Origin: Dictyostelium discoideum
Taxonomy: Eukaryota
Length of the DNA stretch: 64,000 nt
Direction of reading: 5' to 3'
Assembly: GCA_000004695.1 (NCBI GenBank)
Contig: CM000151.3
Location: 1,952,001-2,016,000, forward strand
The notes under the pieces are model-generated. The model saw only the letters and a list, made by a program, of their open reading frames with translations. It made no database searches and had not been told where the DNA came from. The translations under genes and the position numbers were made by a program. Position 1 is the first letter of the stretch; each line of letters starts with the position of its first letter. Below, piece by piece: positions 8,673 through 53,999 of the stretch.

Positions 8673-10949
8673 ATGGATATTTTATATTTTAAAGTTTTTA
8701 AAAATATATATATAAACAAGAAAATTTGGAGTTTTGTAAAAAGATATGACAAAACATCAAAAAGGTATGATGAAATAATATCAATTAGTGAATTGCTTTC
8801 GCTTCATAATAATAAAAATAGAATGAAAATTACAGATCAAGATAGTAGTTTAATTGAACTATTAAAATATAAAATTAAAAGAGGAGATATAATTTTATTT
8901 GATTTTAATATTCAACAATTAATACAAGTTTTTTCTAAAAATGAACAAATTAAACATGATAGAGAATTCTTTAGATGTTTAGTAACCTACTATAAAGAGG
9001 AATTAATTTTTATACCAAATTTATTAGAATCATTTTGTAAATATGGTAATTTAATAGCATTAGAAGAAATTACAAATTTAGAAAAAAGCAATAACAACAA
9101 CAAATATAGTAATAATAATAATAATAAAATTAATAAAATTATATATTATGAAAATTATAAGGTTTCAAAGAAAGCATTTGATTTAGCAATTGAAGTTGGT
9201 GAATTTAAAATTATGGATTTTTTATTCAAGAATCGTAATGAAGGTTATACAGAAAGAGATATTCTTGAGAATATATTTTTAGAAAGTAATAGTAGTAAAA
9301 TGTGTTTAGTTTTCTTAAAGTATGCATTAAATACAATGTCTATAGATTTGTCAAAATGTAAATCAATTAATATAGATTGTTATTACCATTTACAGGATGA
9401 TTTAGAAATTGCAAATAAATTAAATGAATTTGGGTTAATTCATTTTCAAGGAATATCTTATCTTTATCATAATATACCTTTTCCAATTTTAAATACACCA
9501 AATGAATTATTAAATATAGTTAAATCATTTTTATTTATTTTAAAAAAGTATATTTATATAAAACAAGAAGATTACAATGAAGATTATTTTAATAATGAAA
9601 ATTTTGAATATCCAATACCAAAAAGACCACCAATTGAATTAATTGAAAATTTTATAAATAATGAATGTTTATTTACAAATGAAGAATTAGAATTTGATAT
9701 TATTTTAAATTTTAAAGAAACTGATAAAAGAATTGAAAAATTAATTCATTGGTATATATTATTATTTGAACCCTATGGTTTATTCTCTGAATCTGTTGAT
9801 TTAATTTATTCATATATTGCAAAGTATACTAATGATACAATTGAAGATAAACAATTGGTTAATAGAATTTTTAAAAATTCAAATGATTGGGATAAAAATT
9901 TAATTTTTACAATAATATTTTTAAATTGTAATTTTAATTTATTTAATTCATTTTTTAATCGTTTCAATAATTATAGTTATAATAATATTGCTATAAATGG
10001 TATTAAAATTGGAATTTCTTCTTTATTTTAAATAAATTCAAATGAAAAGATTTTACAATTTCTACAATTATTTTATAATAATTATGATTTTAATAGTAAT
10101 TTAAAAAATGAAATTTTAAATGTCATTTATCAACATTTAAAATCAAAATCAAAATTAGAATTATTTTCTCAATTATTTGATTTATTACCTATAAAATTTA
10201 AAGAATATTGTTTACTCAATTTAAATGATGAAAAGAAAATAAATAATAATAATAATATTAATAATATTAATAATATAACAACAATAATTTTACCACAAAT
10301 AGAAACAAAATTATTAATTGAAAAAAAAATAAATGACAATGATTATGGTTATGATAAAAATAAAAAAATGAAAATTGACCCAATAGAGTTAATTAAATTA
10401 CAAAGATTCGAAGAATTATTTGAAAAATATTTTACTTATTATGATGATAACACTAAAGCTTTACTTGAAAATGAAAAACTTTATATTGAAATTGGTAATA
10501 AATGTGTACAATTTGATGAATTACTTGATAGGTTTATTAAAGTATTAATTAATTTTAATTTATTGGAAAATTCAAAAGAGTTTATAATAAATTCAATTTT
10601 AATTAAATCAATTAAAAATGGATTTTTAAAGAATTTACAATACTTTTTAACAACTGATAATAGAAATTTATTTAAAATTTCAAATGAAATTATTATAAAG
10701 ATTTTATTAAATTCAGCAATTATTAATGATAATATTACAATGGTTTCTTATTTACTTTCAATTTTATTTCCTTTTTTATTTTTTAATAACAATCAAATAA
10801 TATCATCTCAAACAATTCCAAGAATTTCAACAGTAACAAAAGAAGAAAAAGAATTGTTATTAAGTATTAATGAACAATTAAATTCTATAAAATTAATTAC
10901 AAAAATGGAAAATTATTTAAAAAAAACAATACTTTTTTTTGATTTATAA
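8673..10949 (+). CDS. Member 1 of a lineage-specific paralogous family (ILYFKVFKN... N-terminus). A single reading frame is open from 8673 to 10949 except for one in-frame TAA at 10029..10031. The product would be about 758 aa, so the gene is either disrupted or two separate ORFs
   Basis: ORF 8673..10031 and ORF 10368..10949 are in the same frame (all coordinates are 0 mod 3). Codon-by-codon reading of 10032..10367 shows no stop in 112 codons of roughly 80% AT DNA, giving ...INSNEKILQFLQLFYNNYDFNSNLKNEILNVIYQHLKSKSKLELFSQLFDLLPIKFKEYCLLNLNDEKKINNNNNINNINNITTIILPQIETKLLIEKKINDNDYGYDKNKKMKIDP.... That region is therefore coding. The N-terminal motif MDILYFKVFKNIYINKKIWSFV matches the other two paralogues in the window. 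Confidence 0.6.
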
Positions 10950-11586
10950 ATCAAAATTTTAAATATATTTTTTTTTTTTTCCTAATAATATAAAATAAAC
11001 CTATAATTTAATTTCAAAAAAAAAAAAAAAAAAAAAAAAAAGAAATTTCAAGATTTAATTAATTATATCTATTTCCAAGTCTATGTTATCATACTTTTTT
11101 TCATTTTTTTTTTTATAATTAATTATACCAAAAATAATCAGTTTTTAAAAACTGATTATTTACATCATTACCATAATGATCTTCAAAAAAATTTTTTATT
11201 TTATATAATTTTTTTTTTATATTTTTATTTTTATTTTGGTTTTTTTTGGTTTTTTGGTTTTTTTTGGTTTTTTTTTTGGTTTTTAGATGAATTTAAAAAT
11301 ATCTTTTAAAATTATTTTTGGAAAAAATAAAGTTGAAATTAGAAGGATTGGGAGATTGATTCAAGTTAATTTTTTTTTTTAATTATTTTTTATTTTTTAT
11401 TTTTAATTTTTTAATTTTTTTTTTTTTTGGGGTTGAAAATTTTTTTTTTAATTTTTTATTTTTTGTTTTTTAATTTTTTTTAATTTTTTTTTTTAATACA
11501 AAAACAGTACGTTTTTATATCAATGCAGCCAAATAAATACACATACATATATTGCTTTTCATATTAATAATAATAAAAAATAATTT

Positions 11587-11628
<42 letters not shown>

Positions 11629-11631
<3 letters not shown>

Positions 11632-11694
11632 AATAATGAAGACACTATTAACAATAATAGTATTATATTTACCAATAACAACATTATTAATAAT

Positions 11695-11788
<94 letters not shown>

Positions 11789-12501
11789 TTGAAAGCGATA
11801 GTGAAGTTTTATTTTGGAAAGTTTTTCATAATAAATTTTTATTGTATTATATATTGAAATGCGTATCATTGCTACCATTAGAATTTACAGATACTGAATT
11901 GTATTATGTTGGAAATAGATCAAAATTTTCAAATATTAAATCACTTTATTGGATGTTATATCATAAACAATTCACACTTGTAATTGATAAATTAATATCA
12001 AATCAAGTGGTTTATATATCACCAGTTTCAATTGAATATTTAATTGAAAAATGTAAACAACCAACAACAACAACAACAACAACAACTACAACTACAACAA
12101 CTACTACTACTACAATTACAACAAAAACAACAACAACCACAGAAGAACAAGAGAATTTATTAAAACAATATAAACAAATTTATCAACTTTTAATTGAAAA
12201 AAATAAAAAAGAATTACAAAGTGTAAATTTAGTAGATAGCTGTATTAGAAATGATAATACATTAGCATTACCATTATTCTTAACAGATTCAACAAATTTA
12301 ATATTACCACAAACCATTACTACATGTATAAAAAATTGTTCCTCTGATACATTATCATTACTACTTTCATCAATTAATCAAAATTCAACAATACCTTTAT
12401 CAGAATATATAAATCCACGTCAAACAATTTTAGATGCAACTTTTAATGAGCAATATAGAGATGAAATGATTAAATTTATATTGGATTATAAATATAAATC
12501 A

Positions 12502-12587
<86 letters not shown>

Positions 12588-13236
12588 TGATGATGATAAT
12601 GATAATAATAATAATGGTGCAGATGAAAATTTTAAAAAAATATTTGAACCATTAAATAATACAACTATACCAAATTTCTCATTAATAAAATCAAAACAAT
12701 TAAAGTTAAGAATGGTTAAAGAATTTTCAAATTTCTTTTACTTGGATCCAATTTCACCAAGTTATCAAATTTTATCACAATCAATTGAAGAATGTAAATC
12801 ATATATTCAATTATTATATATAAAGATTGGTGTTGGTATACCAAAACATTTATTATCAGAAATTAATCAAATTGAAAAGAAATATAATAATACTGATCAA
12901 AATAATAATCAATTAATAATTCAAAAATTGAAAGCAATTGTTATTAAAGAGACTGGATCATTAGATTTCTATTTACAATATTTATTAGAGTATGATCAAA
13001 TCGTTGAAAATCATCAACATAATCAACCACAGAAATTATTAATTTGTAATTACACATTAGCCTTATTTTCATTAAATGGTTTAAAATATTTAGTTAATGA
13101 AAGATATCAAATTACTGATACATCATATCGTAGAGATGAAATTAATAATATCTTTAAAAAATATCGTGGTCAAATTTTAAAAAATCAATCAAAAATTATT
13201 GAATTCTTTCAATTTTATTTTCAAAAATTAAAAATA

Positions 13237-13297
<61 letters not shown>

Positions 13298-13894
13298 GTA
13301 ATAATAATAGTAATAATAATAATAATAATATAAATAATAATAAAAGAAATTCAGATATATTAGGATTAAAAAAATGGGAAGATATTATTAAATTTTTAGT
13401 AATTAATTGTTCAATTGAAACATTGAATGAATTAAAAGGAATTGAAGGTTTTCCAATTGAACATTTCTTATGTATTAATCATAGGGATATTCATGATCCA
13501 TTGAAATATGATTGGTTTGTTAAATGTATTTTATTGGAGAATAGAAAGATGCCACATTTCAGATCAACATTACAGTATATTAAAGATCAAGAGAATTTCT
13601 ACCCACATTCATGGCAATTAATAACAAAATTAGAATCGAAATTAAAGATTAAATTAACTGACGAATATTATCATTTATTCATTCATTCAATTTTAACTTA
13701 TGATTTAGAATCAATTTTAAAATTGAATACTTTAAATTTAAAATTTAAAGATCAATCTTATTATCAATCAAATGGTAATGTTGGTTTTGCAAGTTCTAAT
13801 AATTCTGTACTTTTAAATAATGTTGTAAATGATGAAAATTATAATAATAATGACCATATTGATGAATATTATCATTATAATAGTAATAAAAATT

Positions 13895-13978
<84 letters not shown>

Positions 13979-15303
13979 GAAGAAATAACAATAATAATAA
14001 GAATAGATATAGATTTAGAAATAGATATGGTATTGATGTTGGTGCAATGATTATTGGTAGTAGTGGTGGTGGTGGTGGAGGTGGAGGTGGTGGAGGTGGT
14101 GTCAATAATGATGAAGAAAATGAGGATAATAATAGTAATATTGATAATATTAATAATAGTGATGAAAATGATGAAAATTGTGAAATTAAAACTAAATTTA
14201 AAATACCAGAAACATTTGATAAAGTTTTAAATTTATTTACTTATTTTAATATAACACAATTTAAATCATTTACAGCACAAATTTTTAAGAATATGATAAA
14301 GCTATTTTTAAATAGTCCTGGTATTACTTTGGAAGAGTTATCAATGGTACCTTGTAATTTCAATATTTTTAAGAGGGAATCATTATATCTATTATTGACA
14401 TTCATTTATCAAATTAAATTTGAAAAGGTTTGTTTCATAATAAAGAATACTAAATTTCAATTCAATCTAAATGGTATTCAATTCCCACCAGATTCAATCA
14501 TTAATAAATTTCATAGAGATCATCAATTCGATGATAATTCAGTTGATCCAAAAACTTTTAAATTACTAAATTTTAAAAATCATTTACAAATAATTCAAAT
14601 TATAAATTCATTATTTGATTGGATATCATTAGTTACAAATTTAGAACAACAACAACAACAACAACAAAATAATAATGGTAATAATAATTTTTATGATCAA
14701 AAGAAAATGTTAACTTTGTTTTTACCAGTTTTTGATTATTTATATAAGAGATTATTACAAACTAGTGGTACAACATTAAAGGATATTGAAATGGTAATAG
14801 TTTTATTTAAAAAGTTTGGTATTACAATTCAAGAGGATTTCTTTAACATTTTCTTTTATTTCCTTATAAAATCAAATAAATTTAAAAAATATTTCAATTA
14901 TAAATTATCAAATCTATTAACAACACCATATGATTTAATTGATAAAAAGAAACAACCAAAATTAGAGAAATATTTTAATAGTAGTGCTTTCTCTTTTAAT
15001 CAAATTTTAAATACAAATTTTTATGATTTATTCTTAATTTTAAAAAATCATTTAAATTATCAAATTAATTTAATGCCACCACAACCTCAACAACCTCAAC
15101 AACCTCAACAACCTCATCATCAACAACAACAACAACACTACCTTAATTTTAATAATTTCATTGAAAATATTAATAATCATAATAATCATAGTATTCAACA
15201 AATTGAAAATCTTTATCATCAAGCTAATAGTATTCATGCACAATATAATAATAATAATAATAACAACAATAATAATAACAATAATAATAATAATAACAAC
15301 AAC

Positions 15304-15361
<58 letters not shown>

Positions 15362-16170
15362 GTGGTAATGATGAAATTAAAAATAAATTAAATCAAAAGG
15401 ATAGAATGATTGAAGATTTGAAATTTTTATTAGATATTGGATTAATTGGTTTAGCATTAAAATTAATTAGAGAGGAAGAAGTTTTATCAAAGGAAGAATT
15501 GAAACAAGTTATTGAAGAAATCTTAAAATCATTAGTATCGATCATATCAGTTGAAGATTTTGAATGTTTTATTCAAGATGGTTTCATTGAAATTAATGAA
15601 TTATTAAGTTTTGCTATAATAACTTCAAGATTAGATTTAATTAAAATAATTTTAGAAGATTATAATAGTGATGAAATTAATAATCAAAATGATAATGATG
15701 ATTTATTATCAAAAATTTCAAATTATTCATGTATATTTGAAACATGCCAAAATGATATTATCATTTATTTATTTTCAAAATTTAGACAACAATTAACAAA
15801 TTATGATCAAAGTAGATGGCAAGTTATTGATTCAAGTGAACCCGATTTATTCGATATTTCATTCATGAATGGTAATTTAGAGATAACTCAATTATTATTA
15901 AGTTTTTATCCAATTTATAGTGGTAATGGTAATGGTAATGGTAATAATAGTAGTAATAATAATAATAATAATAATAATGGTTGTAGATTTAAATTTAAAG
16001 AAGAAATAATTCAAAAAACTTTATTAAAAGGTTGTTTTCCTATTGTTAAATTTTATTATGAAAATGGTTTCTTCAGTAATCAATTGGTTGATTCAATTAG
16101 ACAATTACCAATTTCAAAGTTTTTACCTTGGTTAACAAATAAAAGAAAATTTGAAGAATTAGAATTTTAA
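11629..16170 (+). CDS. Member 2 of the same paralogous family; a single-exon ORF of 1513 aa with five long poly-Asn (AAT)n tracts, a poly-Thr tract, a poly-Gly tract and PQQ repeats
   Basis: It is one long ORF in AT-rich DNA. The N-terminal block SDSEVLFWKVFHNKFLLYYILKCVSLLPLEF...LYWMLYHKQFTLVIDKLISNQ is similar to ILFWKVFKNNFLKRQIFYLMLNMDIEF...FKWMIKNNLLDLIKFKLEKNQ at 24953 and to ILYFKVFKNIYINKKIWSFV at 8673. Leu/Ile/Asn-rich repeat-like modules lie downstream. No recognisable enzymatic motif is present. Confidence 0.7.
11695..11788 (+). repeat. (AAT)n of about 31 units, encoding poly-Asn near the N-terminus of family member 2. Further (AAT)n arrays of 20-35 units occur at about 12496-12594, 13240-13330, 13900-13978, 15247-15360 (same gene), 18274-18345 (FHA-BRCT gene), 23026-23140 (ARM-BTB gene) and 25523-25615 (family member 3)
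   Basis: Direct reading. The minus-strand ORFs over these tracts (poly-L, poly-Y, poly-I and so on) are frame and antisense artefacts. Confidence 0.85.
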
Positions 16171-16946
16171 ATAATAATAATAAATATAATTAATAAATTA
16201 ATAAAAAAGTTATAACAAATATGTTTCCTTTTTTTTTTGTTTTTTTTTTTTTAACAAAAAGTTTATTTTTAGAATTTAATTATTTGTTGCTCTGTACCTG
16301 GAATTTAAAAAACATAAGTACCAATCAAATGATAGAAAAAGGAAAGATTTATCATTATTATTATGGTTAATTATTTGAATACAGTGCCAGAGATTTTTAA
16401 TTACATTTTTGAGCGTATTGTGGTTAATGTCTCTTTTCCCATCTTAATATTTTTCTGCTTTGGCACATTCAACAAACCAACATGGTTAATTAATAAATTT
16501 TTGAAATAAAATAAAAAACAATTATTAAAAAATTTATTTATTAAAAAAAAAAAAAAAACAACTTAAATCTGTTTTGATAAACTTTTTTTTTAATTGTTTA
16601 TTTTTTATTTTTCTTCTTCTTCACTAAATTAATCTTTACCCAAAGAAATATATATATATATTTAAAAAAAATAATAAAAAAAAGTGTTAATTTGTTTTTA
16701 TTAAATATTTTGTTTTTATTTTTATTTTTATTTTTTTTTTTTCCACGAAAAAAAGCGCAAGTTTATTTTTTTTATTTTTTTTTATTTTTTTTATTATTTT
16801 TTAAAAACCAATTATGTCTTTCAGATAGTCGACTATCAAATAATAATTTTCAATTTGCTTAATAAAAAAAGGGTTACAATATAAATAATAATAATAATAA
16901 TACTAAATAATAATAAATAAAAAAAACATTAATATTAATAAAAAAA

Positions 16947-18274
16947 ATGTCAAAAAATAGTAATGTTACAATAGTTGATCCAGTATTAAGATTAAAACCA
17001 ACAATTGGTGGTGACCCATCTCACCCATTCTCTGATTTTAAAATTGAAATAGGTGTAAATAAAATTGGTAGAGCATCATCAAATAATATATACTTAAAAG
17101 GTGATACTTCAGTTTCAAATTATCATGCTCAACTAGGTAATTATTTATTTTTAAAATAAAAAAAATAAAAAATAAAAAAATAAAAAAATAAAAAATAAAA
17201 AAATAAAAAAATAAAAAAATAAAAAAATAAAAAATAAAATAATTCTAACTCATTTATTTATATAATTTATGTGTATATTTTTTTTTAGTATTTAATGGAG
17301 CATTCTTTTTAATTAAAGATTTAAATAGTTTAAATAAAACTATGGTTCAATATAGACCAAATGAAGATACAACTGTCTTAAAACCAAATTTAGAGTATCC
17401 AATTATTAATGGTAGTAAAATTACATTTGGCTCTGCAACAATGACACTCAGTTATATGGAAGTTCATAATAGTAATTATTCAAATGATACAATAAATACA
17501 GAGAAAAATTTTAGTTATACTGATAATAGATTAGTACCTCCATCACCACCTGAACCAAAACAACAACAACAACAACAGCAACAACAAATTAATAAACCAC
17601 AACCAATACAAAATATAAACACCACAACCACAACCACAACTACTACAACTACAACCACAGATACAGGTGCATCACTCCTATCTCCAAAATCATCAAATAA
17701 CAACAACAACAACAGCAACAACAACAGCAATACAACCACCACAACTTCATCATCTCCATCTCACCTTTTAACCACCTCTAATTCTGAAATAAAAGATATT
17801 GAAAATAATGTACACCATATAAATAGCAATAACAAAAGAAAACAAGAAGATGAAAATGTTGATAGTTTAGGTAGTTTTGACGACGATGGCAATCTGGTAA
17901 CTGTTAAAAAGCACAAATTAAATAAAATAATAGATGAAGAACACGAAGAACATGAAGAGTATGAACAAAAAGAACTAAAAGAAAAAGAAAAAGAAAAAGA
18001 AAAAGAAAAAGAAAAGAAAAAAGAAATTAAAAAGACAGTATCAAAATATAATATAGAAATTGAAGATGATTTAGAAATGGAGGAAGATGAAAAATTAAAT
18101 AACAATCAAAGTTATGATAGAACTGAACAACAAAATGATAATAATAATGATAATGATAATATTGATAATATGATGGACGAAGAGGATGATGAAATTTCTT
18201 CATCACCTCAACCAATTAGAAAAGAAAATAAAATAGTTAAAAACGATAAAAAAAAAGAGAAAAAAGAAGAAACC

Positions 18275-18347
<73 letters not shown>

Positions 18348-19369
18348 GTATTAGTAATACAAGTCAAAATAGTATAACAAGTCAACAAAGTGATATTAGC
18401 AATAATAGTAGTGGAAGTGTTTGTAAAAGGGGTAAAAGAGGTGCTGGAAAAGTAAATGATGTATATATCAATAATATAGGTATTGATATTGTAAATAGTA
18501 AAAGAAAAACATCAAAACCTGAAAGATTAGAAGAACAAATTTTACAAAAATCATCTTCATCATTATCTTCATCTTCTTCATTACCCTCGTCATCTTCATC
18601 CTCCTCATCATCATCTTCATTTGATAATAAAGAGAAAGAAGAAATAATTAATAAATCACCAAAAAAACAACAAACACCAAAAACAACAACAACAACAACA
18701 AAAACAACTACAAAAACAACATCATCAACAGCAAAAGCAAATTCAAATATAAAGATATTATTTTCAATGTTTTCAGATGATGTTGTAAAGAATTTTGAAT
18801 CAATTTGTTTAAAACTTGGTGGTTCATTAGCAAATAATTCAAAAGAATGTACACATTTGGTTAGTGATGAAATGAAAAGATCGAAAAAGATATTGGAGTG
18901 TATTTCATTTGGTAAAATTATTGTAACCTCTAAATGGTTAAAGGAAAGTAAGAAATCGAATCATTTCTTACCAGAATCACAATACCTTTTAAAGGATGAA
19001 AAAGCAGAATCAGAGTGGGATTTTAATTTGGAGAAATCTTTATCAATCGCTAGAAATAGGGTTAGTGGTAGTGCTGCTTTAAAACCGTTGTTTAATAATA
19101 TGTTGTTTTTCATAACAAAGAATTCAATACCACCAAAGGAATTCCTTAAAGAGATTATTGAAATCAATGGTGGTAATTTATTGGATGATATCAAAGATGC
19201 TGAGAACCAAGAGAATCAAAAAAAAATTATAGCCGTAATTGCAAATGCTGATAAAGATAAAAGGTCTTTAAAAAAATGGTCTGATAATTCTTATAAAGTT
19301 TTAAAAGGAGATTTCATTTTATTATCTGTACTTTCTCAACATTTAATTTATGAAGGTTGTGAAATTTAA
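16947..19369 (+). CDS. MDC1-like DNA-damage mediator: N-terminal FHA domain, a long Ser/Thr/Asn/Glu-rich middle, and C-terminal tandem BRCT domains. 2 exons: join(16947..17136, 17289..19369)
   Basis: The FHA domain is FKIEIGVNKIGRASSNNIYLKGDTSVSNYHAQLG|VFNGAFFLIKDLNSLNKTMVQYRPNEDTTVLKPNLEYPIINGSKITFGSATM (G-R core, S..HA, NGT-type beta-hairpin, ..I.FG), spanning a 152-nt gtaatt...tttttag intron. The C-terminus KLGGSLANNSKECTHLVSDEMKRSKKILECISFGKIIVTSKWLKESKKSNHFLPESQYLLKDEKAESEWDFNLEKSLSIARNR aligns closely with the gamma-H2AX-binding tandem BRCT of human MDC1 ([62 protein letters not shown]...FGFSLQDALSRARE). A second BRCT follows (MLFFITKNSIPPKEFLKEIIEINGGNLL...). Confidence 0.7.
17158..17236. 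repeat. (AAAAAATAAAAAAT)-type A-rich minisatellite inside the FHA-BRCT gene intron
   Basis: Direct reading: aaaaaataaaaaataaaaaaataaaaaaataaaaaataaaaaaataaaaaaataaaaaaataaaaaata. Confidence 0.75.
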
Positions 19370-21023
19370 AATAATAATAATAATTAAAATAAAATGGAAA
19401 AAAAAAATTAAATTTATAATTAATTAAAAAAAAAAAAAAAAAAAAAAATTTATTTTTTTAATTGTAATAGGTAATCATTAAATTTCTATATACTGAAATA
19501 AATAAAAAAATGAGATAAAAAAAAAAAAAAAAAAAAAAAAACCACATTCCGATTACAACAGATAAAGCCATAAAATTAAATTGAAGTGTGGTAAAGATAA
19601 AAATAAATTAAAAAAATTAAAATGGTGTTTGTGGGGGTGAGAATAAAAAAAAAATAAAAAAAAAAACAATTAAAAATTAAAATAAAAAAAAAAAAAAAAA
19701 ACAATAACATTTTTGACCATATTTTATAAAAAGTTCATAAAAGGAAAAATCGATTTGGTTTTTTTATTTTTATTTTTATTTTTATTTTTTTTTTTTGTTG
19801 ATTTATTATTTTTAATTTTTTTTTTTTTTTTATTTTATTATTTTTTTTTAAAAAAAAATAAATAGTTTTAAAGAAAAAAAAAAAAAATAGTTTTACATAT
19901 TTATTTGCATTCTTTTTTTTATTTTCAAATTATTATTTTTTTTTTTTGTGTGTTCATTGTTTTTAATCAAAAAATAAAAAAATAAAAAAATAAATAAATA
20001 AAAAAATAAATAAAATTTTATTTTCAGTTTTTTTTTTTTTTTTATAATAATCAAATCAGCGATAAATTTGTTTTTTATTAATATTATTATTGTTTTTTTT
20101 TATTTTTTAAATTAAAAATCTTTATTAATAAGAATTAATTATTATATAATTAAATTTTATAAATTTTGGGTTTTTTTTTTTTTTTTTGTCATAAATTATT
20201 TTATTATTTTTTATTATTTTTTTGCATACCCGAATAATTATAATTTATTCAAATTAACGTACGATTTTCAATAGCATGTAAGTTTCATAGTTTTTAACCA
20301 TAGTAGATGTAACAAACCACTTTTTTTTATTTATTTTTTTAATTGTTTTTTTTTTTTCACGTGCAGAAAAAAAAAAAAAAAAAAATGGTGTTTGTATTTT
20401 TGATTTGTTTGTTGCAAATTATTACAAATGTCAAAAAATAATTTTTTTTATTTAATTTAATTTTTTTATTTATTTATTTTTATTTATATTTTTTTTTTTT
20501 TTTTTTAATGTATTAAAATAATTATTTGTTAAAAAAAAATAAAAATTTTGGATATTATTTTTTGGTTTTTTTCAATTTTTTTTTTTTATTGGTTTTTTTT
20601 TATTTTTTTTTTCTAAACATTAATTGTTAAAACCAAAAAAAAAAAAAAAATTAATATCCAAAAAAAAAAAAAAAAAGCAAAAATAGGATAATATTCACAG
20701 GTAAAAATAAATTAAATTGATCAAAAGGGAAATTTTGTCAGGTAAATTATTTTTTTTTTTTCTTTTAGGATTCCTAAAAAAAAAAAAAAGTAAAATAAAA
20801 TAAATAAAAAAAAATTAAAAAAAAATTTTTATTTGTAAATTCAAGTTCTCTTGTTATTACAAATTTAATCAAACAAATAAGGGTTACCACCACACACCCA
20901 ATAAAAAAAAAAAAAAATTATTAACAAACAACTAGTTGGTACATAATTATATAAATTAATATATCAAAAATAATATTAATATACAAAAAATTATCATTAA
21001 AACATTTTCTGTCCACCAAACTA

Positions 21024-21059
<36 letters not shown>

Positions 21060-22053
21060 AAAAAAAAAAAAAAAAAAAAAAATTAATTGTTGTGTGTTTG
21101 AAGTTGGGTGTTTTCGGTAAAAATTTTTTTTTTTTTTTTTGGTGGTGCATTTAATAGAAATGTTGTTTGGGTAGATAGAAAAAATGAGTGGTGTGTGTGA
21201 ATAATCTAATTTTATCAATATATAATAATAATAATTATAATAATAATAATAATAATGCAATATATTTGCACTTTTTTTTTTTTTTTTTAATTTCACTTTT
21301 TTTAATTTTTTTTTTTTTAATATACAATAATTTATTATGTAATAATTTAATAATCACATCAATAATCAATTTATATATATTTAATAATTTTAATAATTAT
21401 TATTTTTACTACACACTATTTTTTTTTTTTTTTTTTTTTTCACTTTAAAAATTACAGATTTATTTTGTCACAAAAAAAAACAAAAACAAAAAAACAATTG
21501 TTATATATGTATATGTATATATATATGTATATGTATATTAAATAAACTTATAAAAAATTAAAATTTCATTTATTATAACATTTTTTTTAAAAAAAAAAAA
21601 AAAAATTAATATTAAATATAAAATTACAAGCGAAAAAAACAAAAAAGAATTTTAAAATATTAAATTACATTCATATAATCAAAGAAATCTCACCACATGA
21701 AAAAATAAAAAAATAAATAAATAAATAAAAAATAAAAAAATAAAAAATAAAAAAATAAAAAAAATAAAAAAAAAAAACAACTCCCAATTCAACCATAATA
21801 ATAAATAATAAATAATACACCCTTTTTTATCTTTTTTTATTTTTTTTTTTATTTTTTTTTATTATTTTTATTTTTTTTAAATTATTATATTATTAATTAT
21901 TAATATCATTATTATTTTAATATTCCCTCAGTAACAATAAATCATTTTTCTTAGTTTGAATTTTTAAATAATAAAAACAAAGCGCTGTAATAATTTAAAA
22001 TTTTCCATTAATAGTTAATAAATAAATTAATAAATAAATATAATAATTAAAAA
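19370..22053. other. 2.7-kb gene-free, extremely A/T-rich intergenic block containing a few complex-sequence islands (about 19545-19640, 20229-20320, 20880-20945)
   Basis: No ORF longer than about 90 aa except homopolymer translations. The islands include ccacattccgattacaacagataaagccataaaattaaattgaagtgtggtaaag and cccgaataattataatttattcaaattaacgtacgattttcaatagcatgtaagtttcatagtttttaaccatagtagatgtaacaaaccac. Confidence 0.4.
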
Positions 22054-22420
22054 ATGATGGCAGAAACAGCAGAGGATTCAGATCCAATCTCAGAAGCAGT
22101 TGGGTAAGATTATAAAGTTATATTAAAGAAAAAAAAAAAAAATAAAATAAAAAACTAGGGTTATATATATATATTATATACTAATTAATATTTTTTTTAT
22201 TTTTATTTTATATTTTTTTTTTTTTTCTAAATTAATTAATGAATTATTAGATTCATTAGTAATATACTATCAAGTGATACAGAATTACAATATAAAGGAT
22301 TAAAAGGGTTAATGATATGTCCAACTTCACTTGTTGTTGAGTTATTCAAAAATCCAGCTTACTTTTATCATATAAAAAAACATCCAAATCATAAATTTAA
22401 TAACCATAATAATCATAATG

Positions 22421-22452
<32 letters not shown>

Positions 22453-23094
22453 CCATCACCAACATCTTCAACTACATCATCAAATGGCTCATCACCTAAT
22501 AATGGAAATTCTCCAAATCATGGTTCATCATCACCTAATAATAATAATAATAATAACAATAATAACAATAATAACAATAATGTATCATCTAATACTTCAT
22601 CATCATCATCCTCTTCATCGCCACATTCATCATCATCACCAACTAATTGCCCATCGACTTTACCTCATGGAGTTGATCCATGTAATCAATGTTCACCAAA
22701 TGGGTCACCAAAATATTCAGATATTGATTTCGATAAAATCACAAAAAAAAGAAAAAGCAATATAAAAAGTTTAATTGAACTTTGTTTATCCGAAAATAGA
22801 AAAGTTCAATCATCTGCATTAAGATTATTATGGCATTTATCTGCACAAGGTATTTTTTAAAAAATTAAAAAAAACAATTTCTAAAAATAATAATAATAAT
22901 TTACTAATTTAATTTTTTTCTTTTCTATAATTAATTTAGCTGATTTAAAAGTTTTATTATTTGAAGAAGGTGTTTTAGATAAATTAAAATCGTTAATGTT
23001 TAGTGATTTTGAAAAATATAATATTAATAATAATAATAATAATAATAGTAAATACCCCAATAATAATAATAACAATAATAATAATAATAATAAC

Positions 23095-23137
<43 letters not shown>

Positions 23138-24440
23138 GTGGTTCAACATCACCAACAGATATTGCAAATGAAAGACAAATCAATGTACATAGAACAGATG
23201 TTCAATTAGCATCATCAGCAATTTTACAGAATATAACAGAATTTAGATTTGAAAAAGGTGAAATTAATCCAAACCAAGTGAAGATCGTTAATGAAGGTAT
23301 AGTTGATTTAATTCTAATACCAAGATCCAAGAGTACAGATAAAAGAGTTCAATTCTTAACAACACTCACTATTGCAAACTTATCAATGAATGATGAAAAT
23401 CATACAGCACTTACAAAATCAAAAGCATTTGATGTGGTTGAAGCATTTGTAACTTCAAATTCTTTACATATGGATTTAGTTTGTCATTGGATAACTTTAC
23501 AACCTCATATACCTTTATTACATTCAAAATATCATCAAGTTCAATTATTTGCATTATATTGTCTATATAATTTAATAAGGAATGGTATGAATTATTTAAG
23601 TAATTTAATTATATTTTTTAAAAAACAAAAAGCATATTTGCTAATTTATTTTTATTTTATTTTTAAAAAGAACAATATAAAGTTGAAGTTTGGAAAGGAT
23701 TAAGTGTAAATAATGGTGTACAAAGTATTTTCATTTTATTACATTCAATGCATCCAAAAGTTGTTGAATTAGCAAAAAAGATAGCAGATCAATTACAGAT
23801 TGAAGAACCATCAGTCACTGTGAATACAACAAAGATTGGTACAGATTTGAAAAAGTTATTTAATAATCAAGAATATTCAGATGTTATATTCACATGTGAA
23901 GGAAAGAAATTGTATGCACATAAAGCGATTTGTGCATCGAGATGCGAACAATTGAGAGCAATGTTCACTTGGGGTAAGGAATCAAAAGAACAAGATATCA
24001 ATCTACCACATACACCCTACTGTGCGATGTATGGTGTGTTAGAGTACATCTATTGTGGTCAAGCTACTATCACTTGGGAGAATGCATGTGATCTATTGCA
24101 ATGGGCTGATTTCTTTTCTTTGGCTGGTTTAAAAAGTAGTTGTGAATTTTATTTATGGCATTATATTGATTTAGAGAATGCTCCTATCATTTTGACTGTA
24201 GCTGATCGTTATCGTTGTACTCAATTAAGAAATGTAGCCGCTAACTTTGTTCTTAGAAATTGGGATAAAATTAAAGATTTTGACGTTTGGATAAATCAAG
24301 TCACTGTTGATGTTAAAAATTATATCTCTGAAAGAATTTATTCTTTAATAACTTGTTCTTGTGGTTGTATTTGTAGTTGTGTTGATGATGCTAAAAATAA
24401 TAATGCAAATTCTCCTTCTCAAATTGTTGATGAAAATTAA
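22054..24440 (+). CDS. Armadillo-like repeat plus BTB/POZ domain protein, 4 exons: join(22054..22103, 22251..22849, 22940..23584, 23671..24440)
   Basis: Exon 1 (MMAETAEDSDPISEAVG) joins exon 2 through a gtaaga...ttattag intron, and the phase was verified at all junctions. The middle part has ARM/HEAT-like repeats (VNEGIVDLILIPRSKSTDKRVQFLTTLTIANLSMNDENHTALTKSKAFDVVEAF). The C-terminal BTB domain is YSDVIFTCEGKKLYAHKAICASRCEQLRAMFTWGKESKEQDINLPHTPYCAMYGVLEYIYCGQATITWENACDLLQWADFFSLAGLKSSCEFYL. The ARM+BTB architecture is as in ARMC5 or plant ARIA. Confidence 0.7.
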
Positions 24441-24498
24441 ATCAATTAATTAAAAATAATAATCAAAATCATAATCAAAATCATATAATCATAATCAT

Positions 24499-24535
<37 letters not shown>

Positions 24536-24952
24536 AAAAAAAAAAAAAAAAAATAAAAAAAAATAAAAAAGAAATAAATAATCATTGAAATTTATAATTG
24601 TTTAAACATTAAATTAAAATGAAATAAAATAAATAAAAAAAATAAATTAAAACTTTATTTAAAAAAAAAATACCAATAGGAGGAAGTCGACTTCCTAATG
24701 CTTTTATTTATAATATTATTAGTTTCTAATGTGTCCATAACCTGATAATTGTTTTTTTTTAAAAACTAAATAAAAAAAAAAAAAAAGTTAAAAAATAATA
24801 TCTCAATTTTGAGACATTAAATATCTTTTTTTTAATTTTTTTTATTTTTTTTTTATATTTTTTTTTTTTTGATTATCTTTTTTTTTTTTCATTTTTTATT
24901 TTCAATTTTTTTTTTTTTTTTTTTTTTAAAAACAATAAGAATACATAAAGAA

Positions 24953-25520
24953 ATGAATGAAGATTTAACAAAATTAAAGAGAGAAATCATACAACAACAA
25001 CCAATGGATTATAACGAAATTTTATTTTGGAAAGTTTTTAAAAATAATTTTTTAAAAAGACAAATCTTTTATTTAATGTTGAATATGGATATTGAATTTC
25101 AAAATCATTCAAAATATTTTACTGAAAATAGAATTAAATTTGAGAATGTTTACTCATTTAAATGGATGATAAAAAATAATTTATTAGATTTAATAAAATT
25201 TAAATTGGAAAAAAACCAATATATTGATATTAGAAATAGTGATATCTGTAATTTCATTAAATCTGTCAAAATCCTCGGTGGACCTTCAAAAATAACAAAT
25301 AATCATTTAATTATCTTTAAATTATTAATTAATCAATACCAAATTCTATTTGAAAATCAACATGTTAGATTATTAGTAAGACTTGATAATCATCAATTTT
25401 TACAAATACTATTATCAGAATCAATTAAAAAATTTAAAATCACTTCAAGTCATATTTCATTTTCAATTAAAAAATGTTCAACATTAACATTAGATTTATT
25501 AAATAAATATATAAATAAAG

Positions 25521-25615
<95 letters not shown>

Positions 25616-28006
25616 TATATTAATAATGATAAAGATAAAATAATAACAAATTATATTAAAACCAACTCAATAGAATGGTGCTTACAATATAATAATAATG
25701 ATAAAGATAGTATGATATCATACATTTTGGAAAATAAAATTTTTTTATATAATCAATATGGGTTTCATAATTATTATAAATATGATTTAGAAATTTTTGT
25801 AGTAAATAATGATAAAGCGTACAATTTAAATCAATGTATCCCAACAACAACAGCAACTGAAGAAGTTACAACAATGGTAAAAGAATTGGAAATTAATTCA
25901 AAAATTAGTGATTATGAAAAAATAAAACAATTTATTAAATCAATTGTTAAAAAGGAAAATTCAATGAAATTATATAGTTTTTATTATTTTAAATATTATG
26001 AATTAATTGAAAAGGATGATGATTTTAAAGGTTTTAATGATAGTGGATTCTTAAGATTAAATACAGTTGGAATATTAAATAAAATTGATAATTTAATTAT
26101 TGATTTAAAAAATAATAAAATTAATACCAATGATATTATTAATTTTATTATTAAATTTTTAAATGAAATTAAATGGAATAATTGGAGAAAGAATAAAGTT
26201 TTATTAAATAGAATTAGAATTTTAATATTTGAAATTGTTAATGATAATAAAGAACTATATGAAAAATCAATAACTAAATTAAAACAATCATTAAACATTC
26301 AATTATATAATTTATTTGAATTTCCTAAAGAATGGAATTCGAATATGATTTCATTAACAATTGAACCAATGAAAAGTAATGACATTTTATTAATGGATAA
26401 AAATAATTATTGGTTAAATGCTATTGATCGTATAAATAATAATAATAGTAATAAAAGTATTGCAACACCATTTATAATAGAATTAAAAAAGAAATTATGG
26501 AAAAATTTAATAGCATTTGATCAAGATGAAAAAATAAATAAAATAAACAATAAAAACAATGTTAAAATTAATAATAATAATAATAAAAATAATAATTTTA
26601 ATTTATATGAACGTTTTCAAAATGAAAATAATCAAAAAGAAAATTTAAAATTCAAAAGTACAATTATAAATTTTAGTCAATTTTTAGATATATCAAATCC
26701 ATTTCCCCTTGAAACTGATATAAAAGAATCATTTGAAACTATCTTTGAATCAATTAATGAATTTGATATTACAAAAATTAAATCAGTAATTAATTCAATC
26801 GATATCTTTTCACCACCAATCTCAAGACAATTCTCAAGATCATGGGAAGCATTTATAAAGAAATTTTTTAATAATCAATTTGAATTAATACAAGACGATG
26901 ATCAACTTGAAATTGTAAAGAATTATTTAAAATTTTGGTTAACTTTAAATCCAAAAATCGTTAAAAAAACATCATCATCATCATCAACAACAGCAACAAC
27001 AACAACAGCAATATCAACAAAACCAAAAAGACCAACAAGACCACTACCAAATTATCAATTTATAATTAATTATTTATTTAAAATTTTGATTAAATTTAAA
27101 GGTATTTCAATTTCAGAATTAATTGAAATTAAAAATCAAATTAAAAAGAAATCAATTTTATTGGAAAATTCAGTTTATCATATTGGATTCTATTTAAATT
27201 TTAAATCTTCAAAATATTTTGCATATTTTAAAAATGATTCACTTTTAGGAAATAAAGCAAATTTAAATGATTTAAATAAAATTTGTACATTTGAATTTAT
27301 ATTTGAAGAAGGTAGATCATTTGATGAAATATTAGAAACAATTATAATCAATAGTACATCAATAACTGATAATACAATCAACTACCTAATTAATATAAAT
27401 AGAATTAAATTATTTAGAAAATATTTCCCAATTTATTTAAAAAATGACAGATATTTCATTTTTAATGAACTTTTACAAATTGGTTTTACCCTTTTAAAAA
27501 AGTTAATTAATTATAGTACAAATTTAGAATATATTCAATCCAATTTAAATGAATATTTACAACAAATTGAATTAAAAGTATTGGATAATAAAATTGATAT
27601 TATAATTTTTAAGAAAATTTTAAGTAATATTTTAGGTTATTCAATAATTTTAAATAGAAAAGATATAGTTTCATTCATTATAAATCAATATAATATAAAG
27701 GAAATTTCAAATGATTTTACTTATTGGAATAATTATCCAATGATTGAATATATTTGTGAAAATCATCCAAATGTTGATATTTCAAAACCTTTTCAAACTG
27801 CCTTTGATAATAGTTTACCATTTCTTTCAAAATCAATACCAATCTTTGATATCCTTATAAAGTATAAACCATCTTTATTCATAATTACACCTTATAATTT
27901 AAACAATGCAATTTCATCCAAAGATTATTATATTTTAAATTATTATTTTAAAAAAGGTTATTTACATAAAGATGAAGATGGTAATTTTAAATTAATAAAA
28001 AATTAA
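24953..28006 (+). CDS. Member 3 of the paralogous family (MNEDLTKLKREIIQQQPMDYNEILFWKVFKNNFLKRQIFYLMLNMDIEF...); a single exon of about 1017 aa with a 30-unit (AAT)n poly-Asn tract
   Basis: The long ORF is listed from 24869, but the upstream MIIFFFFHF... is poly-T translation, so the first plausible ATG is 24953. It shares the N-terminal motif and an overall Leu/Ile/Asn/Lys-rich repeat organisation with 8673 and 11629. All three are on the plus strand. Confidence 0.65.
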
Positions 28007-28097: not shown

Positions 28098-28997
28098 TTA
28101 ATCTAATTTAAAATTTGAATTTTTTAAATATTCTCCAAATGTTGTGAATTTTGTAATTTTTGAAGCAATTGATTGATCTAAATCATTGAATACACCAAAT
28201 TCATTGTAAAATTCAAACATTGAAGCTAAATCATTAGCATTTGGGAATCCAAATGTACGGAATATTGAAGGTGGTATAAATTTGAATGTAACAGATTTAC
28301 CAGATACTTTGGAGAAGATATTGGCAATTTCAGGACCAGAAAGAGCTCCACCAGAGAATGGTACAACAACACCAGAATATTTATTTTCATTTAATAGGAT
28401 TTCACATACTATTGCACCGATATTATCAACATCACCCATATCCATTGGTTTGCCATTTGATGGTAAAGAGATTGTATAACCACCATCACCATTTTCATTC
28501 TTTTTTGGTACGAATGATTTAAAATTTTGATAATAAAATGGTGCATAAACGAATGAACTGATAAATGATGGATTGGATTCAGATAATTCTCTAACATATT
28601 CTTCAACTAAATATTTTTGGTCAAAATGTGGTACGATGATACGACCATTTGAAATCTTATTACATGGAGGAAGACCACTGAATACAAAGTGTTTAACACC
28701 AGCACCGAATGCAGCATCAGCTATCTTTTTACCAACATCGGTTTCATTTTGTGCAAAAGCAATTGTTAAAGCAAATACAGCATCACTACCTTTTAAAACT
28801 TCTTGAATAGCTTCTTTTGAATCGGTATCATTTGATTTTACAACTTCAGCTCCCAACTCTTTTAATGATTTTGATGCTTCACTACTTGGATCTCTTGTTA
28901 ATGCACGAACTTTAAAATTACCATTTTTTAATAATTCCCTAACAACTGAACTACCTTGTTGACCTGTTGCTCCAAAAACTGTAACTAATTTTGTCAT
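28098..28997 (-). CDS. NmrA-like family NAD(P)-binding protein (atypical SDR/isoflavone-reductase-like), single exon, 299 aa
   Basis: MTKLVTVFGATGQQGSSVVRELLKNGNFKVRALTRDPSSEASKSLKELGAEVVKSNDTD carries a Rossmann TGATGxxG motif and the NmrA-type N-terminus. The ORF is uninterrupted on the minus strand. Confidence 0.75.
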   Translation of the reverse strand: MTKLVTVFGATGQQGSSVVRELLKNGNFKVRALTRDPSSEASKSLKELGAEVVKSNDTDSKEAIQEVLKGSDAVFALTIAFAQNETDVGKKIADAAFGAGVKHFVFSGLPPCNKISNGRIIVPHFDQKYLVEEYVRELSESNPSFISSFVYAPFYYQNFKSFVPKKNENGDGGYTISLPSNGKPMDMGDVDNIGAIVCEILLNENKYSGVVVPFSGGALSGPEIANIFSKVSGKSVTFKFIPPSIFRTFGFPNANDLASMFEFYNEFGVFNDLDQSIASKITKFTTFGEYLKNSNFKLD

Positions 28998-29429: not shown

Positions 29430-31155
29430 TTATTTTATTTTATTTTTTTCTAATTTTTGTTTTTTAAGTGGTTGATCTTTAATTTCAGCATTACTGGCTG
29501 ATGTAGTTTCAGTTGGGGTTGTACTTGAGGTACTTGGTGCAGTACTAGTATTAGTAGTTGAAGTTGATGTTGTATCATTTTGTTGCTCTTGTTTTTGTTG
29601 TTGCTCTTGATGTGGTTGTTGTGGTTGTTGTGGTTGTTGTGGTTGTTGTGGTTGTTGTGGTTGTTGTTGTGTTTGTTGCTCTTGTTGTGGTTGTTGCTCT
29701 TGTTGTGGTTGTTGCTCTTGTTTCTCTTGTTGTAGTTGTTGTGGTTGTTGTGGTTGTTGTTGTGGTTGCTCTTGTTGTTGTGGTTGTTGTGGTTGTTGTG
29801 GTTGTTGTTGTGGTTATTGTTGTGGTTGTTGTTGTGGTTGTTGTTGTGTTTGTTGTTCTTTATTACCTTGATTTAATTTAATTGGTTTATATGGAGTAGT
29901 TGGAGTTAAAATTATACAAGCTCTATGATATAATTTTTCATATTCACTACCTTCATTACCGGTTTTCTCAGTAACTAACTTTTTATAAGATGGAGTACCT
30001 TTTAATGAGCCAACAACTACTTCAACAGGTACCTACCACCTATTTGACCACCCCCAAATTACACATTTCTCCACAATAAATGGAATAAGATACACATTCC
30101 TTAGTTTCACCCAAGTCAGAACTAGGAATATCACTTACACAAGCACGATCTTCATATAAAGTACCTTCCTCAGTGATATGAATAATACCTAATGTAACTT
30201 GAACTGATAATTTTGATTTAATTGAATCGAAAAAACTTGTAAGTACTATATCCCTATTTTTCAATTTCTTGAATCCAAAACTAGCAGGTGGATAACTCTG
30301 ATCAAGTACTAAGAAAAGTGATGAATTTATTTGATTATTTCTTTGTTTTTTTTCAAAATATTCAATAATACCCTCCTCAATAGTTGGTATAATTTTATTT
30401 GATTTAATAATTGATCCAATATCTATAGTTGTTGATGTGGAAGAATCAGATTTAATTAAATTATAAACTAAACATATACGTGTTCCCTCTGTAATTTCTT
30501 TAACTTCATGTTCGCAATCTGCATAGAATGCACAATATTTAATTGTTTTATTGGCACTTTCACCACTACCACTACCAACACCACTAATATTACTACTATC
30601 ATCCATTGATACTTTTACTTCATTACCTGAATGTCTAATATATAAATCACCACCTAAATGAGATGAAGGTAAATTTACAACTAATGTACCAAACATTTTA
30701 TCTTCTTTTTCTGTATCTTTATGTGATAAAAAGAATGATCCTTTATTATAAATTAATAGTTTATATAGGTTTGCTTTAACTTTATCCTTTTTAGCTAACC
30801 CTAAATCTGAGCATACACTTGGTAAAATATATTCTGAAACTATTTTATTGATTATAGTTGGTGTTTTTAATATTTTTGGATCCATTTGCCATACTTTTCT
30901 AACATTAGTATCTACAATGGTTTGTTCACCTTTACCAAATGGTGCTAGTTCACATTTTTCAATTATTTTTTCAATTGATTCATAAGTAACTGGAAATTAT
31001 AATTTAGGACCTTTCTTAACTTCAATATTTGGTATAACTTCACGAACAATTGAACCACTTGAATAATATGAACCAAATGATTCAATATTTTCAGGACTTT
31101 TTGAAACTTTTTGATTCAATTCTATATCACTTAATTCACTTAATTTTGAAATCAT
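29430..31155 (-). pseudogene. 2OG-Fe(II) oxygenase (prolyl-4-hydroxylase-like) gene with a PQQ/EQQ-repeat tail, apparently disrupted. In-frame TAA at 30997..30999, reading-frame break at about 30019..30042, and in-frame TAA at 29814..29816
   Basis: Minus strand from ATG 31153..31155 reads MISKLSELSDIELNQKVSKSPENIESFGSYYSSGSIVREVIPNIEVKKGPKL*FPVTYESIEKIIEKCELAPFGKGEQTIVDTNVRKVWQMDPKIL..., with TAA in frame (31155-30999=156). The frame continues through FLSHKDTEKEDKMFGTLVVNLP...GGDLYIRH...AFYADCEHEVKEITEGTRICLVYNL (HxD...H...R-x-L 2OG-oxygenase motifs) to TAG at 30040..30042. A second frame (first bases 2 mod 3) is open from 30035 to a TAA at 29430..29432: VPVEVVVGSLKGTPSYKKLVTEKTGNEGSEYEKLYHRACIILTPTTPYKPIKLNQGNKEQQTQQQPQQQPQQ*PQQQ...(PQQ/EQQ)n...NDTTSTSTTNTSTAPS...KDQPLKKQKLEKNKIK*. 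This frame has no ATG of its own and carries TAA inside the 9-bp repeat (caa caa TAA cca). The two frames cannot be joined by a normal-length intron. Confidence 0.55.
29588..29850. repeat. Imperfect 9-bp tandem repeat (GTTGTGGTT)n on the plus strand, equal to (CAACCACAA)n on the minus strand, encoding (PQQ)n/(EQQ)n
   Basis: Direct reading: gtggttgttgtggttgttgtggttgttgtgg... with variants ctcttgttg (EQQ). The ORF-track entries 29558..29881 (poly-V) are the antisense translation. Confidence 0.85.
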
Positions 31156-35847: not shown

Positions 35848-36067
35848 ATGAATAAAAATCAAAATGATTGGAAAGTTGAATTAAGAAAAGCAACAAGATC
35901 AAGTTTAATTAGTATAACCAATGAAACAGATTTTCAATTACAAAGAATATCATGTAAATTACAACAGGGAATGTTAAGATTAATCCCACCAGGTATGTTA
36001 ACAAGTTTAATTATTTTATGTTTTTCCCCCCCTACAAGTGGTGTGATTGTTGACATTTTATTTTGTG

Positions 36068-36103
<36 letters not shown>

Positions 36104-39100: not shown

Positions 39101-39280
39101 CGTGTAGATTATATATTAAACTTTAAATTATCTCCAAATTTTGGTGATCATGAAGGTAGAAATCAATTATTAAAATTGGAATGTACTGAAACTAATATAG
39201 TTCCAATGGGTGCAACTCCTCAAACTAGATTATCAAATCATTTTGCATTAGAATGTATATTACATATTAAAAAGAAATAA
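35848..39280 (+). CDS. Large protein with an internal duplicated N-terminal module, a Ser/Asn/Gly-rich linker, an EEP (endonuclease/exonuclease/phosphatase, neutral sphingomyelinase/CCR4-like) catalytic domain and a Clu-like C-terminal region. 2 exons: join(35848..35992, 36102..39280)
   Basis: The gtatgt...aaaaag intron has verified phase (cca g|...|ag = GAG). Repeated module: IPPKSSIEFGTESNAFMTGTKGSVIYIVLPPSS versus IPPNSMIEFGSVSSGFTTGTDGVIHYHSQGS. EEP motifs: IRIFSFNVGS...YDIILLQEVF...YLYVFNANLQANPDNSIAWQMVNGDDKQRKAATVRTLQLQSIRDFI...LLLVGDFNLNAEVEQV (LQEV and GDFN are hallmark Mg-dependent phosphodiesterase motifs). C-terminus: ITLTFSYQLLEYLNDLNIPMRYLGILRSQLQNNRMKSLVLTEMITYIIKKDIIEHL resembles the CLU central domain (...MRYLG...). 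A Gln-rich coiled-coil lies near the end. Confidence 0.6.

Positions 39281-52583: not shown

Positions 52584-52614
<31 letters not shown>

Positions 52615-53955: not shown

Positions 53956-53999
<44 letters not shown>

Follow-up and report, generated by a model that had tools for sequence, protein, structure and literature searches.

The largest repeat family specific to Dictyostelium is that of the FNIP-repeat proteins, whose repeats are related to leucine-rich repeats. Here we analyse 64,000 nucleotides of Dictyostelium discoideum DNA (GenBank assembly GCA_000004695.1, contig CM000151.3, positions 1,952,001 to 2,016,000 of the forward strand; hereafter the window), in which three open reading frames (ORFs) starting at 8673, 11629 and 24953, named g1, g2 and g3, contain a different kind of repeat-rich protein. 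They are probably deeply diverged paralogues of a dictyostelid-only family, an assignment that covers both their identity and their evolutionary history. As far as sequence comparison goes, the family is best regarded as an undescribed variant of ankyrin-like repeat proteins, found only in dictyostelid social amoebae. The three genes were present on the plus strand and within 20 kb, as a first-pass annotation made from the sequence alone had reported, with lengths of 758 (read through a TAA), 1513 and 1017 amino acids. The genes and their N-terminal family domains are as follows.

8673-10949, plus strand: g1, divergent family member; 758 codons if read through the TAA, made up of a 452-amino-acid ORF (8673-10031) and an in-frame remainder of 305 codons (10032-10949)
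8673-9452, plus strand: N-terminal family domain of g1; starts with the ILYFKVFKN signature and holds an ankyrin-like FDLAIEVGEFKIMDFLFKNRNEGYT unit
11629-16170, plus strand: g2, intact family member; 1513 amino acids, with homopolymer runs making up about 13% of the protein
11797-12378, plus strand: N-terminal family domain of g2, amino acids 57-250; interrupted by a poly-Thr insert; 121-134 bits with the family profile
24953-28006, plus strand: g3, intact family member; 1017 amino acids
25010-25540, plus strand: N-terminal family domain of g3, amino acids 20-196; predicted ankyrin-like stack of helix pairs

The first-pass annotation had described a block of about 70 residues common to all three proteins. 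For g2 and g3 the similarity is significant after correction for composition: BLASTP with compositional matrix adjustment gave 52.8 bits (E=1e-10, 31% identity over 189 amino acids), the poly-Thr tract of g2 falling into a gap of the alignment. Comparison of the two orthologue groups with hhalign gave a probability of 99.1% and E=4.9e-19 over 167 columns. Identity between g2 and g3 is about 31-33%, in the N-terminal domain only. A hidden Markov model (HMM) of the family built without g1, g2, g3 and P0001 scored g2 at 121 bits and g3 at 83 bits. Both g2 and g3 have the core of the domain, YY.GNR.KF..I.SL.WM. Unrelated sequence stands in its place in g1 and the three g1 orthologues, and for g1 the claim of a shared block fails at this central core.

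The start of g1 reads ILYFKVFKN..I, followed by LIELLKYKIKRGDII about 60 residues on. By BLASTP, g1 has no significant match to g2 or g3 (best E=2.2 and 2.5), and a direct profile comparison of g1 and g2 with hhalign was not significant either. With a family HMM from which g1 had been left out, the protein nevertheless scores 25-26 bits (E=5.8e-8 over all 94 window ORFs), the next unrelated ORF reaching 5 bits. Its first 165 amino acids score 31.1 bits, against a mean of -5.9 (standard deviation 2.7, maximum 9.6) for 3000 shuffled sequences, none of which reaches this value. When the g1 orthologue group was compared with the first 400 residues of the family, hhalign aligned 217 columns covering residues 2-265 (probability 97%, E=1e-10). 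Judged by these profiles, which were built without it, g1 is a genuine but divergent member of the family, recognisable through the wider family profile only. It shares with the dictyostelid family its first 260 or so amino acids.

To establish the extent of the family, 1.84 billion cluster representatives (50% clustering) were searched exhaustively with HMMER, using an N-terminal profile made from three sequences. At E<=1e-3 the family comprises 56 representatives, 26 of them at E<=1e-10; 54 of the 56 have the start of the domain among their first 30 residues, and full-length representatives are about 600-1430 amino acids long. All 20 representatives whose taxonomy was looked up are dictyostelid, bearing out the earlier suggestion of a lineage-specific family. 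They come from isolates of the D. discoideum complex, D. dimigraforme, D. firmibasis, D. citrinum, D. purpureum and Tieghemostelium lacteum, plus one EukProt entry, and are labelled hypothetical or uncharacterised, except for that of T. lacteum, which UniRef names 'Ankyrin repeat-containing protein'. At the start of the domain, which is about 100-180 amino acids long, the signature (E)(I/L)LFWKVF.N..L...I is near-invariant.

A second conserved block, NYL(Y/F)..L(I/L)...G(I/V)...I.L.HS.(Y/F)H.F(Y/F)YL.I(K/R)S.K..KY, is found in g2, g3 and at least 20 of the 36 long representatives. A strict regular expression matches 20 of these 36 and g2; g3 and P0001 have a variant last residue. The g1 group lacks the block, as does a subgroup with P0028, P0031, P0039 and P0054 among its members. 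Residues 908-1108 of g2 and 583-776 of g3 give a colinear hhalign match, which is weak (E=0.021) and non-significant alone. The two copies in the window are:

14716-14913, plus strand: second conserved block of g2, DYLYKRLL...FFYFLIKSNKFKKYF, located by motif scan
27050-27235, plus strand: second conserved block of g3, INYLFKILIKFKGISISELIEIKNQ...VYHIGFYLNFKSSKYFAYF; the same block occurs in P0002, P0007, P0013, P0035 and others

Neither the LFWKVF.N signature nor the central NYLY...YYL.IKS.K block has a Pfam match in g1-g3 or in 39 family members, and Pfam searches of g1-g3 returned sub-threshold noise only (LRRK2 beta-propeller, Rep_1, New_glue). In the literature searched, no description of the family or of its motif was found.

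The window is colinear with two assemblies labelled "D. discoideum", GCA_054859355.1 (L001) and GCA_054859385.1 (L002), with nucleotide identities of 85-96% over aligned segments and a synonymous divergence (dS) of about 0.04-0.07. Proteins identical to those of the window were not found in the databases, so that the strain of the window is either missing from them or different from these two isolates. P0001 is the direct syntenic orthologue of g3, and P0058 that of g1. The g2 orthologue in L002 is 95.6% identical, with a ratio of non-synonymous to synonymous divergence (dN/dS) of 0.28; for g3 and P0001 (L001), identity is 94.5% over aligned codons (96% in the N-terminus) and dN/dS is 0.37. 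Against D. dimigraforme, whose g2 orthologue is 68-92% identical in blocks at a dS of about 0.3, dN/dS of g2 is 0.16-0.28 in every block. As a yardstick, the NmrA-like neighbour of g3 has a dN/dS of 0.58 against the sibling genome, above both g2 and g3. By these ratios, g2 and g3 are functional genes under purifying selection, constrained along their whole length.

Distances between N-terminal domains place the three genes far apart within the family: among 61 sequences, g2 ranks 46th for g3 and g3 38th for g2, while g1 is 60th to 61st for both. The nearest relatives of g3 are P0001, P0007 and P0013, and those of g2 are P0004, P0020 and P0005; g1 has its own orthologues only. D. dimigraforme also has g1 and g2 side by side, in a syntenic position downstream of the same RhoGAP and PH-domain genes. 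The g1-g2 arrangement thus predates the split from D. dimigraforme, and a recent tandem duplication is not supported. The trio would be an old, retained arrangement, in which g2 and g3 have been kept by purifying selection.

The first-pass annotation had recognised no motif from characterised proteins in the family. This stands in so far as the Pfam ankyrin models are silent on g1-g3; it does not stand for the predicted fold, in which both the shared block and the C-terminus resemble ankyrin stacks. A full-length AlphaFold2 model of g3, calculated from a 39-sequence alignment, is all-helical with a mean predicted local distance difference test score (pLDDT) of 65; pLDDT is mostly 70-90 for residues 20-200 and 700-1017 and drops below 50 in linkers, among them the poly-Asn tract. 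The N-terminal 196 residues, modelled with 33 sequences, form successive helix pairs with a pLDDT of 87 and a predicted template-modelling score of 0.73. The two helices of the signature pack into this ankyrin-like stack, and in the predicted model the antiparallel helix pairs, which recur about every 33 residues, superpose on solved ankyrin domains. The motif LFWKVF.N.YL...IF may accordingly correspond to a degenerate 'LHLAARNGHLEVVKLL' ('LHLAARNGHL') helix-turn-helix unit.

Comparison of a 39-sequence HMM with PDB sequences, which does not depend on the model, returned ankyrin proteins for all of the best 60 of 68 matches, at weak E values of 0.004-0.7; they map to profile positions 101-168 and about 872-946. 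In P0039, Pfam Ank_4 scores 23.6 against a gathering score of 22.7 at residues 140-161, inside the N-terminal domain. Sub-threshold matches were obtained for P0046 (Ank_2, residues 142-212) and, to Ank models, for P0031 and P0023. The C-termini of g2 and g3 give weak colinear matches with each other (BLASTP E=0.015, hhalign E=0.018), non-significant alone. Loose A..G/N.l.i...LL patterns align to ankyrin repeats, at weak E values for each stretch (at least 0.66) and with no TPLH. The C-terminal regions concerned are:

15505-16167, plus strand: C-terminal region of g2, with ankyrin-like helix pairs, e.g. FMNGNLEITQLLLSFYP and LLKGCFPIVKFYYENG
27551-28003, plus strand: C-terminal ankyrin-like helical repeats of g3

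From the models and the sequence matches, the proteins are expected to work like ankyrin-repeat proteins, and they probably descend from them. Several points weigh against our interpretation. In g1-g3 there is no Pfam Ank match at E<=1, and only 3 of 39 members match Ank_2 even at E<=0.01. A Foldseek search of the PDB with the full g3 model gave no match at E<=1e-3, generic solenoids only, and the evidence for the fold consists of predicted structures, about half of the g3 model having a pLDDT below 70. The stop codon in g1 could be a sequencing error and, as regards the adaptor role considered below, there is no characterised member. The N-terminal profile alone found nothing significant among PDB sequences, and by Pfam thresholds g1-g3 are formally not ankyrin-repeat proteins. 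The family might instead be a new class of alpha-solenoid (HEAT, ARM, TPR-like or unclassified), ankyrin-like only in predicted models and not ankyrin by descent; we consider this unlikely.

The premature stop noted in one copy by the first-pass annotation is present in g1, and differs from the sibling genome by DNA alignment:

10029-10031, plus strand: premature TAA at codon 453 of g1; GAA (Glu) in the sibling genome

The orthologues P0058, P0059 and P0060, from three related genomes, are intact, with 758, 758 and 777 amino acids, and all three have Glu at this position. Amino-acid changes polarised with outgroups number 8 in 452 residues upstream and 10 in 305 downstream of the stop in the window lineage, and 12 upstream and 10 downstream of the same position in the sibling lineage. 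The 305 AT-rich codons downstream contain no second lesion, neither frameshift nor stop. Because of this, and because there is no downstream excess of changes, the GAA-to-TAA change would seem to be either very recent or a base error in the record. Against D. dimigraforme, dN/dS of g1 is 0.24-0.29 in the first 300 amino acids and 0.75-1.16 in the last 450; downstream of the stop it is 0.87 against the sibling genome. The C-terminal 450 amino acids are thus near-neutral (window 8673-10949 compared with L008 10001-12334), yet the ORF is open in three genomes, AT-rich though its sequence is.

With its in-frame TAA and these high ratios in the C-terminal part and beyond the stop, g1 might also be taken for a decaying pseudogene, the cluster being partly dead rather than carrying a fresh or erroneous stop. 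This is quite unlikely: the TAA is a single disabling change, with no frameshift or further stop after it, the high C-terminal dN/dS is also seen in lineages with an intact ORF and does not rise in the window lineage after the stop, and the N-terminal 300 amino acids are constrained. On the preferred reading of a fresh or erroneous stop, the stop, if real, would give a product of 452 amino acids in which the constrained N-terminal part is retained and the fast-evolving tail of 305 residues is missing.

Family members would be large (about 750-1500 amino acids), all-alpha proteins with an N-terminal ankyrin-like helix-pair domain of about 180 residues. Most of them, including g2 and g3 and excluding g1, would also carry the central block and C-terminal ankyrin-like repeats. 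By eye, no N-terminal hydrophobic stretch is visible in g1-g3, no prediction tool having been applied, and from this the proteins would be intracellular. They may act there as protein-binding scaffolds or adaptors, as other ankyrin-type solenoids do, with the near-invariant N-terminal module binding a partner common to the paralogues and the divergent helical body providing paralogue-specific targets. We put this adaptor mechanism forward tentatively, by analogy. A more far-reaching version is speculative and has little probability: through their N-terminal module, all paralogues would dock onto a single cellular machine, for instance a ubiquitin ligase, a trafficking coat or a signalling hub. 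In that case the family, with its several dozen paralogues, would amount to a dictyostelid-specific set of interchangeable specificity adaptors. Tandem duplication, loss by nonsense mutation and slippage in the linkers would drive its birth-and-death evolution, perhaps in response to conflict with bacteria or cheater strains.

The family might also consist of substrate adaptors of Skp1-cullin-F-box (SCF) ubiquitin ligases, with EILFWKVF.N..L...I as an F-box-like module; F-box-plus-ankyrin effectors such as Legionella AnkB would be the parallel. In favour of this there is only the E-I-L...F...L spacing of the signature, which loosely resembles the start of an F-box, and the adaptor-like layout in which a variable repeat body follows an invariant N-terminal module. 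This reading is very improbable. There is no F-box or F-box-like Pfam match in g1-g3 (E<=1) or in 39 members (E<=0.01), and F-box identity was rejected at this level; in addition, the hydrophobic spacing is one residue off, an LP or V(C/S)K.W element is lacking, and the two signature helices belong to the ankyrin-like stack in the model.

The recent local tandem duplication followed by very fast divergence that the first-pass annotation proposed draws on the location of three genes on one strand within 20 kb and on a recent triplication elsewhere in the family (L005, about 63-78% identity), and is hardly tenable: the three genes are not mutual nearest relatives (ranks 38-61 of 61), g2 and g3 are alike in the N-terminal domain only, g1 and g2 were already adjacent in D. 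dimigraforme, and with dN/dS at 0.16-0.37 there is no sign that g2 or g3 has evolved at an accelerated rate.

Six other family loci were inspected, of which L003, L004, L006, L007 and L009 hold singletons within +/-10 kb. The sixth, L005 (3-13936 of JBTAPG010000060.1, GCA_054859355.1), has three tandem same-strand members that are about 63-78% identical; the first copy is split into two ORFs (676 and 631 amino acids), and the second can be read through only by assuming an intron or frameshift. Unlike the trio in the window, the L005 copies stem from a tandem expansion that is genuinely recent, possibly followed by disruption. In D. purpureum, two members sit two genes away from each other. Clustering in the family does not look random, nor is it universal; recent tandem duplications and gene disruptions are found in the family, but not at the g1-g3 locus.

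Low-complexity tracts are distributed unevenly over the three proteins. The padding by poly-Asn, poly-Thr, poly-Gly and PQQ tracts that had been ascribed to all of them is confirmed in full for g2, amounts to one poly-Asn run in g3 and does not apply to g1, in which a homopolymer scan found no runs of >=6 residues. The ten such runs of g2 (Asn up to 38, Thr 17, Gly 12 and Gln 7 residues) account for 12.8% of the protein. The runs located by the scan are:

11698-11787, plus strand: poly-Asn run of g2, amino acids 24-53
12064-12114, plus strand: poly-Thr run of g2
12502-12585, 13237-13296, 13897-13977 and 15247-15360, plus strand: other poly-Asn runs of g2
14065-14100, plus strand: poly-Gly run of g2
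25523-25615, plus strand: poly-Asn run of g3, amino acids 191-221 (Asn 31), its one run, which splits the N-terminal domain from the rest

In the L001 orthologue the g3 tract has 15 residues fewer, and residues 198-230 of g3 are modelled with a pLDDT below 50. Between g2 or g3 and their orthologues, at a dS of about 0.07, 20 of 21 insertions and deletions lie in or beside homopolymer or simple tracts, which vary in length by up to 32 residues, also between g2 and the sibling genome. The expansion of microsatellites suggested earlier is thereby supported. The poly-Asn, poly-Thr, poly-Gly and poly-Gln tracts would be replication-slippage inserts in linkers, free to change length.

The GC content of the window, about 20% (13-29%), and the richness of its ORFs in poly-Asn, poly-Thr and poly-Gln are typical of Dictyostelium. 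The same-strand local cluster is confirmed by the ORF positions, though its genes are not contiguous: g2 and g3 are separated by a BRCT gene and a BTB gene, and RhoGAP and PH-domain genes lie upstream of the g1-g2 pair. The ATG of g3 is inside a longer, TTG-started ORF (24869-28006). The genes between g2 and g3 and directly after g3 are:

17342-19369: BRCT-domain gene, between g2 and g3
22312-24440, plus strand: multi-exon gene with a terminal BTB/POZ domain (E=4e-22), between g2 and g3; three consecutive ORFs resemble exons
28098-28997, minus strand: NmrA-like protein of 299 amino acids (Pfam NmrA, E=2e-101), directly downstream of g3

The BTB gene (22312-24440) contains long poly-Asn and Ser-rich tracts, and it is these repeats that give rise to antisense ORFs of poly-Leu and poly-Ile. 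An HMM scan and phmmer, run on all ORFs of >=80 amino acids, found no family members in the window beyond g1-g3; a tRNA scan found no tRNA genes, and none of the large flanking ORFs tested has transposon-related Pfam domains. Further along, an intergenic GTT-type microsatellite (29558-29881) reads as a poly-Val ORF of 107 amino acids and is almost certainly non-coding. Two large Asn-rich ORFs on the plus strand are unrelated to the family, one (36047-39280) with an endonuclease/exonuclease/phosphatase domain and the other (51753-54926) with a C-terminal PP2C phosphatase domain. An ORF of 2304 amino acids (43234-50148, plus strand) encodes a highly reducing type I polyketide synthase with the C-terminal part of the ketosynthase, acyltransferase, dehydratase, methyltransferase, enoyl reductase, ketoreductase and acyl carrier protein domains; the N-terminal part of the ketosynthase is probably in the ORF at 42416-43054, separated from it by an intron.

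If our reading is correct, g1-g3 belong to an undescribed family without a Pfam model, with at least 56 sequence clusters and restricted to social amoebae. Its diagnostic N-terminal domain and likely ankyrin-type fold would give an annotation handle on dozens of 'hypothetical' Dictyostelium genes. The locus itself would be a small natural experiment, combining a conserved neighbourhood, a fresh nonsense allele and hypervariable Asn, Thr and Gly tracts. The value of these results lies mainly in annotation and in Dictyostelium comparative genomics; no long-standing question is touched.

Three groups of proteins invite comparison. Dictyostelid hypothetical proteins such as ACTFIW_011659, ACTFIR_012599, DICPUDRAFT_97575, DLAC_10447 and RB653_001969 have the N-terminal domain, the central block and the C-terminal repeats in common with g2 and g3; members of this family come without a Pfam model or experiment, and membership says nothing about function. 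Like the g1-g3 family, the FNIP-repeat proteins are lineage-expanded, repeat-rich, uncharacterised and partly clustered, and a FNIP gene adjoins the family member P0005. A FNIP relationship was rejected, as no PF05725 match was found in g1-g3 or 39 family members; in contrast to the FNIP repeats, with their kinship to leucine-rich repeats, the g1-g3 family is predicted to be all-helical. With ankyrin-repeat proteins (IkB-alpha, 1nfi_F; ankyrin-1, 7tw3_G; RFXANK, 3v30_A; and DARPins), the family shares A..G.lE.vk.LL-type helix pairs in the C-terminal segments and in those following the signature. It differs from them in that the TPLH and G-x-hairpin consensus is largely lost, and in that its proteins far exceed them in length and contain long helical segments without repeats as well as long disordered ones.

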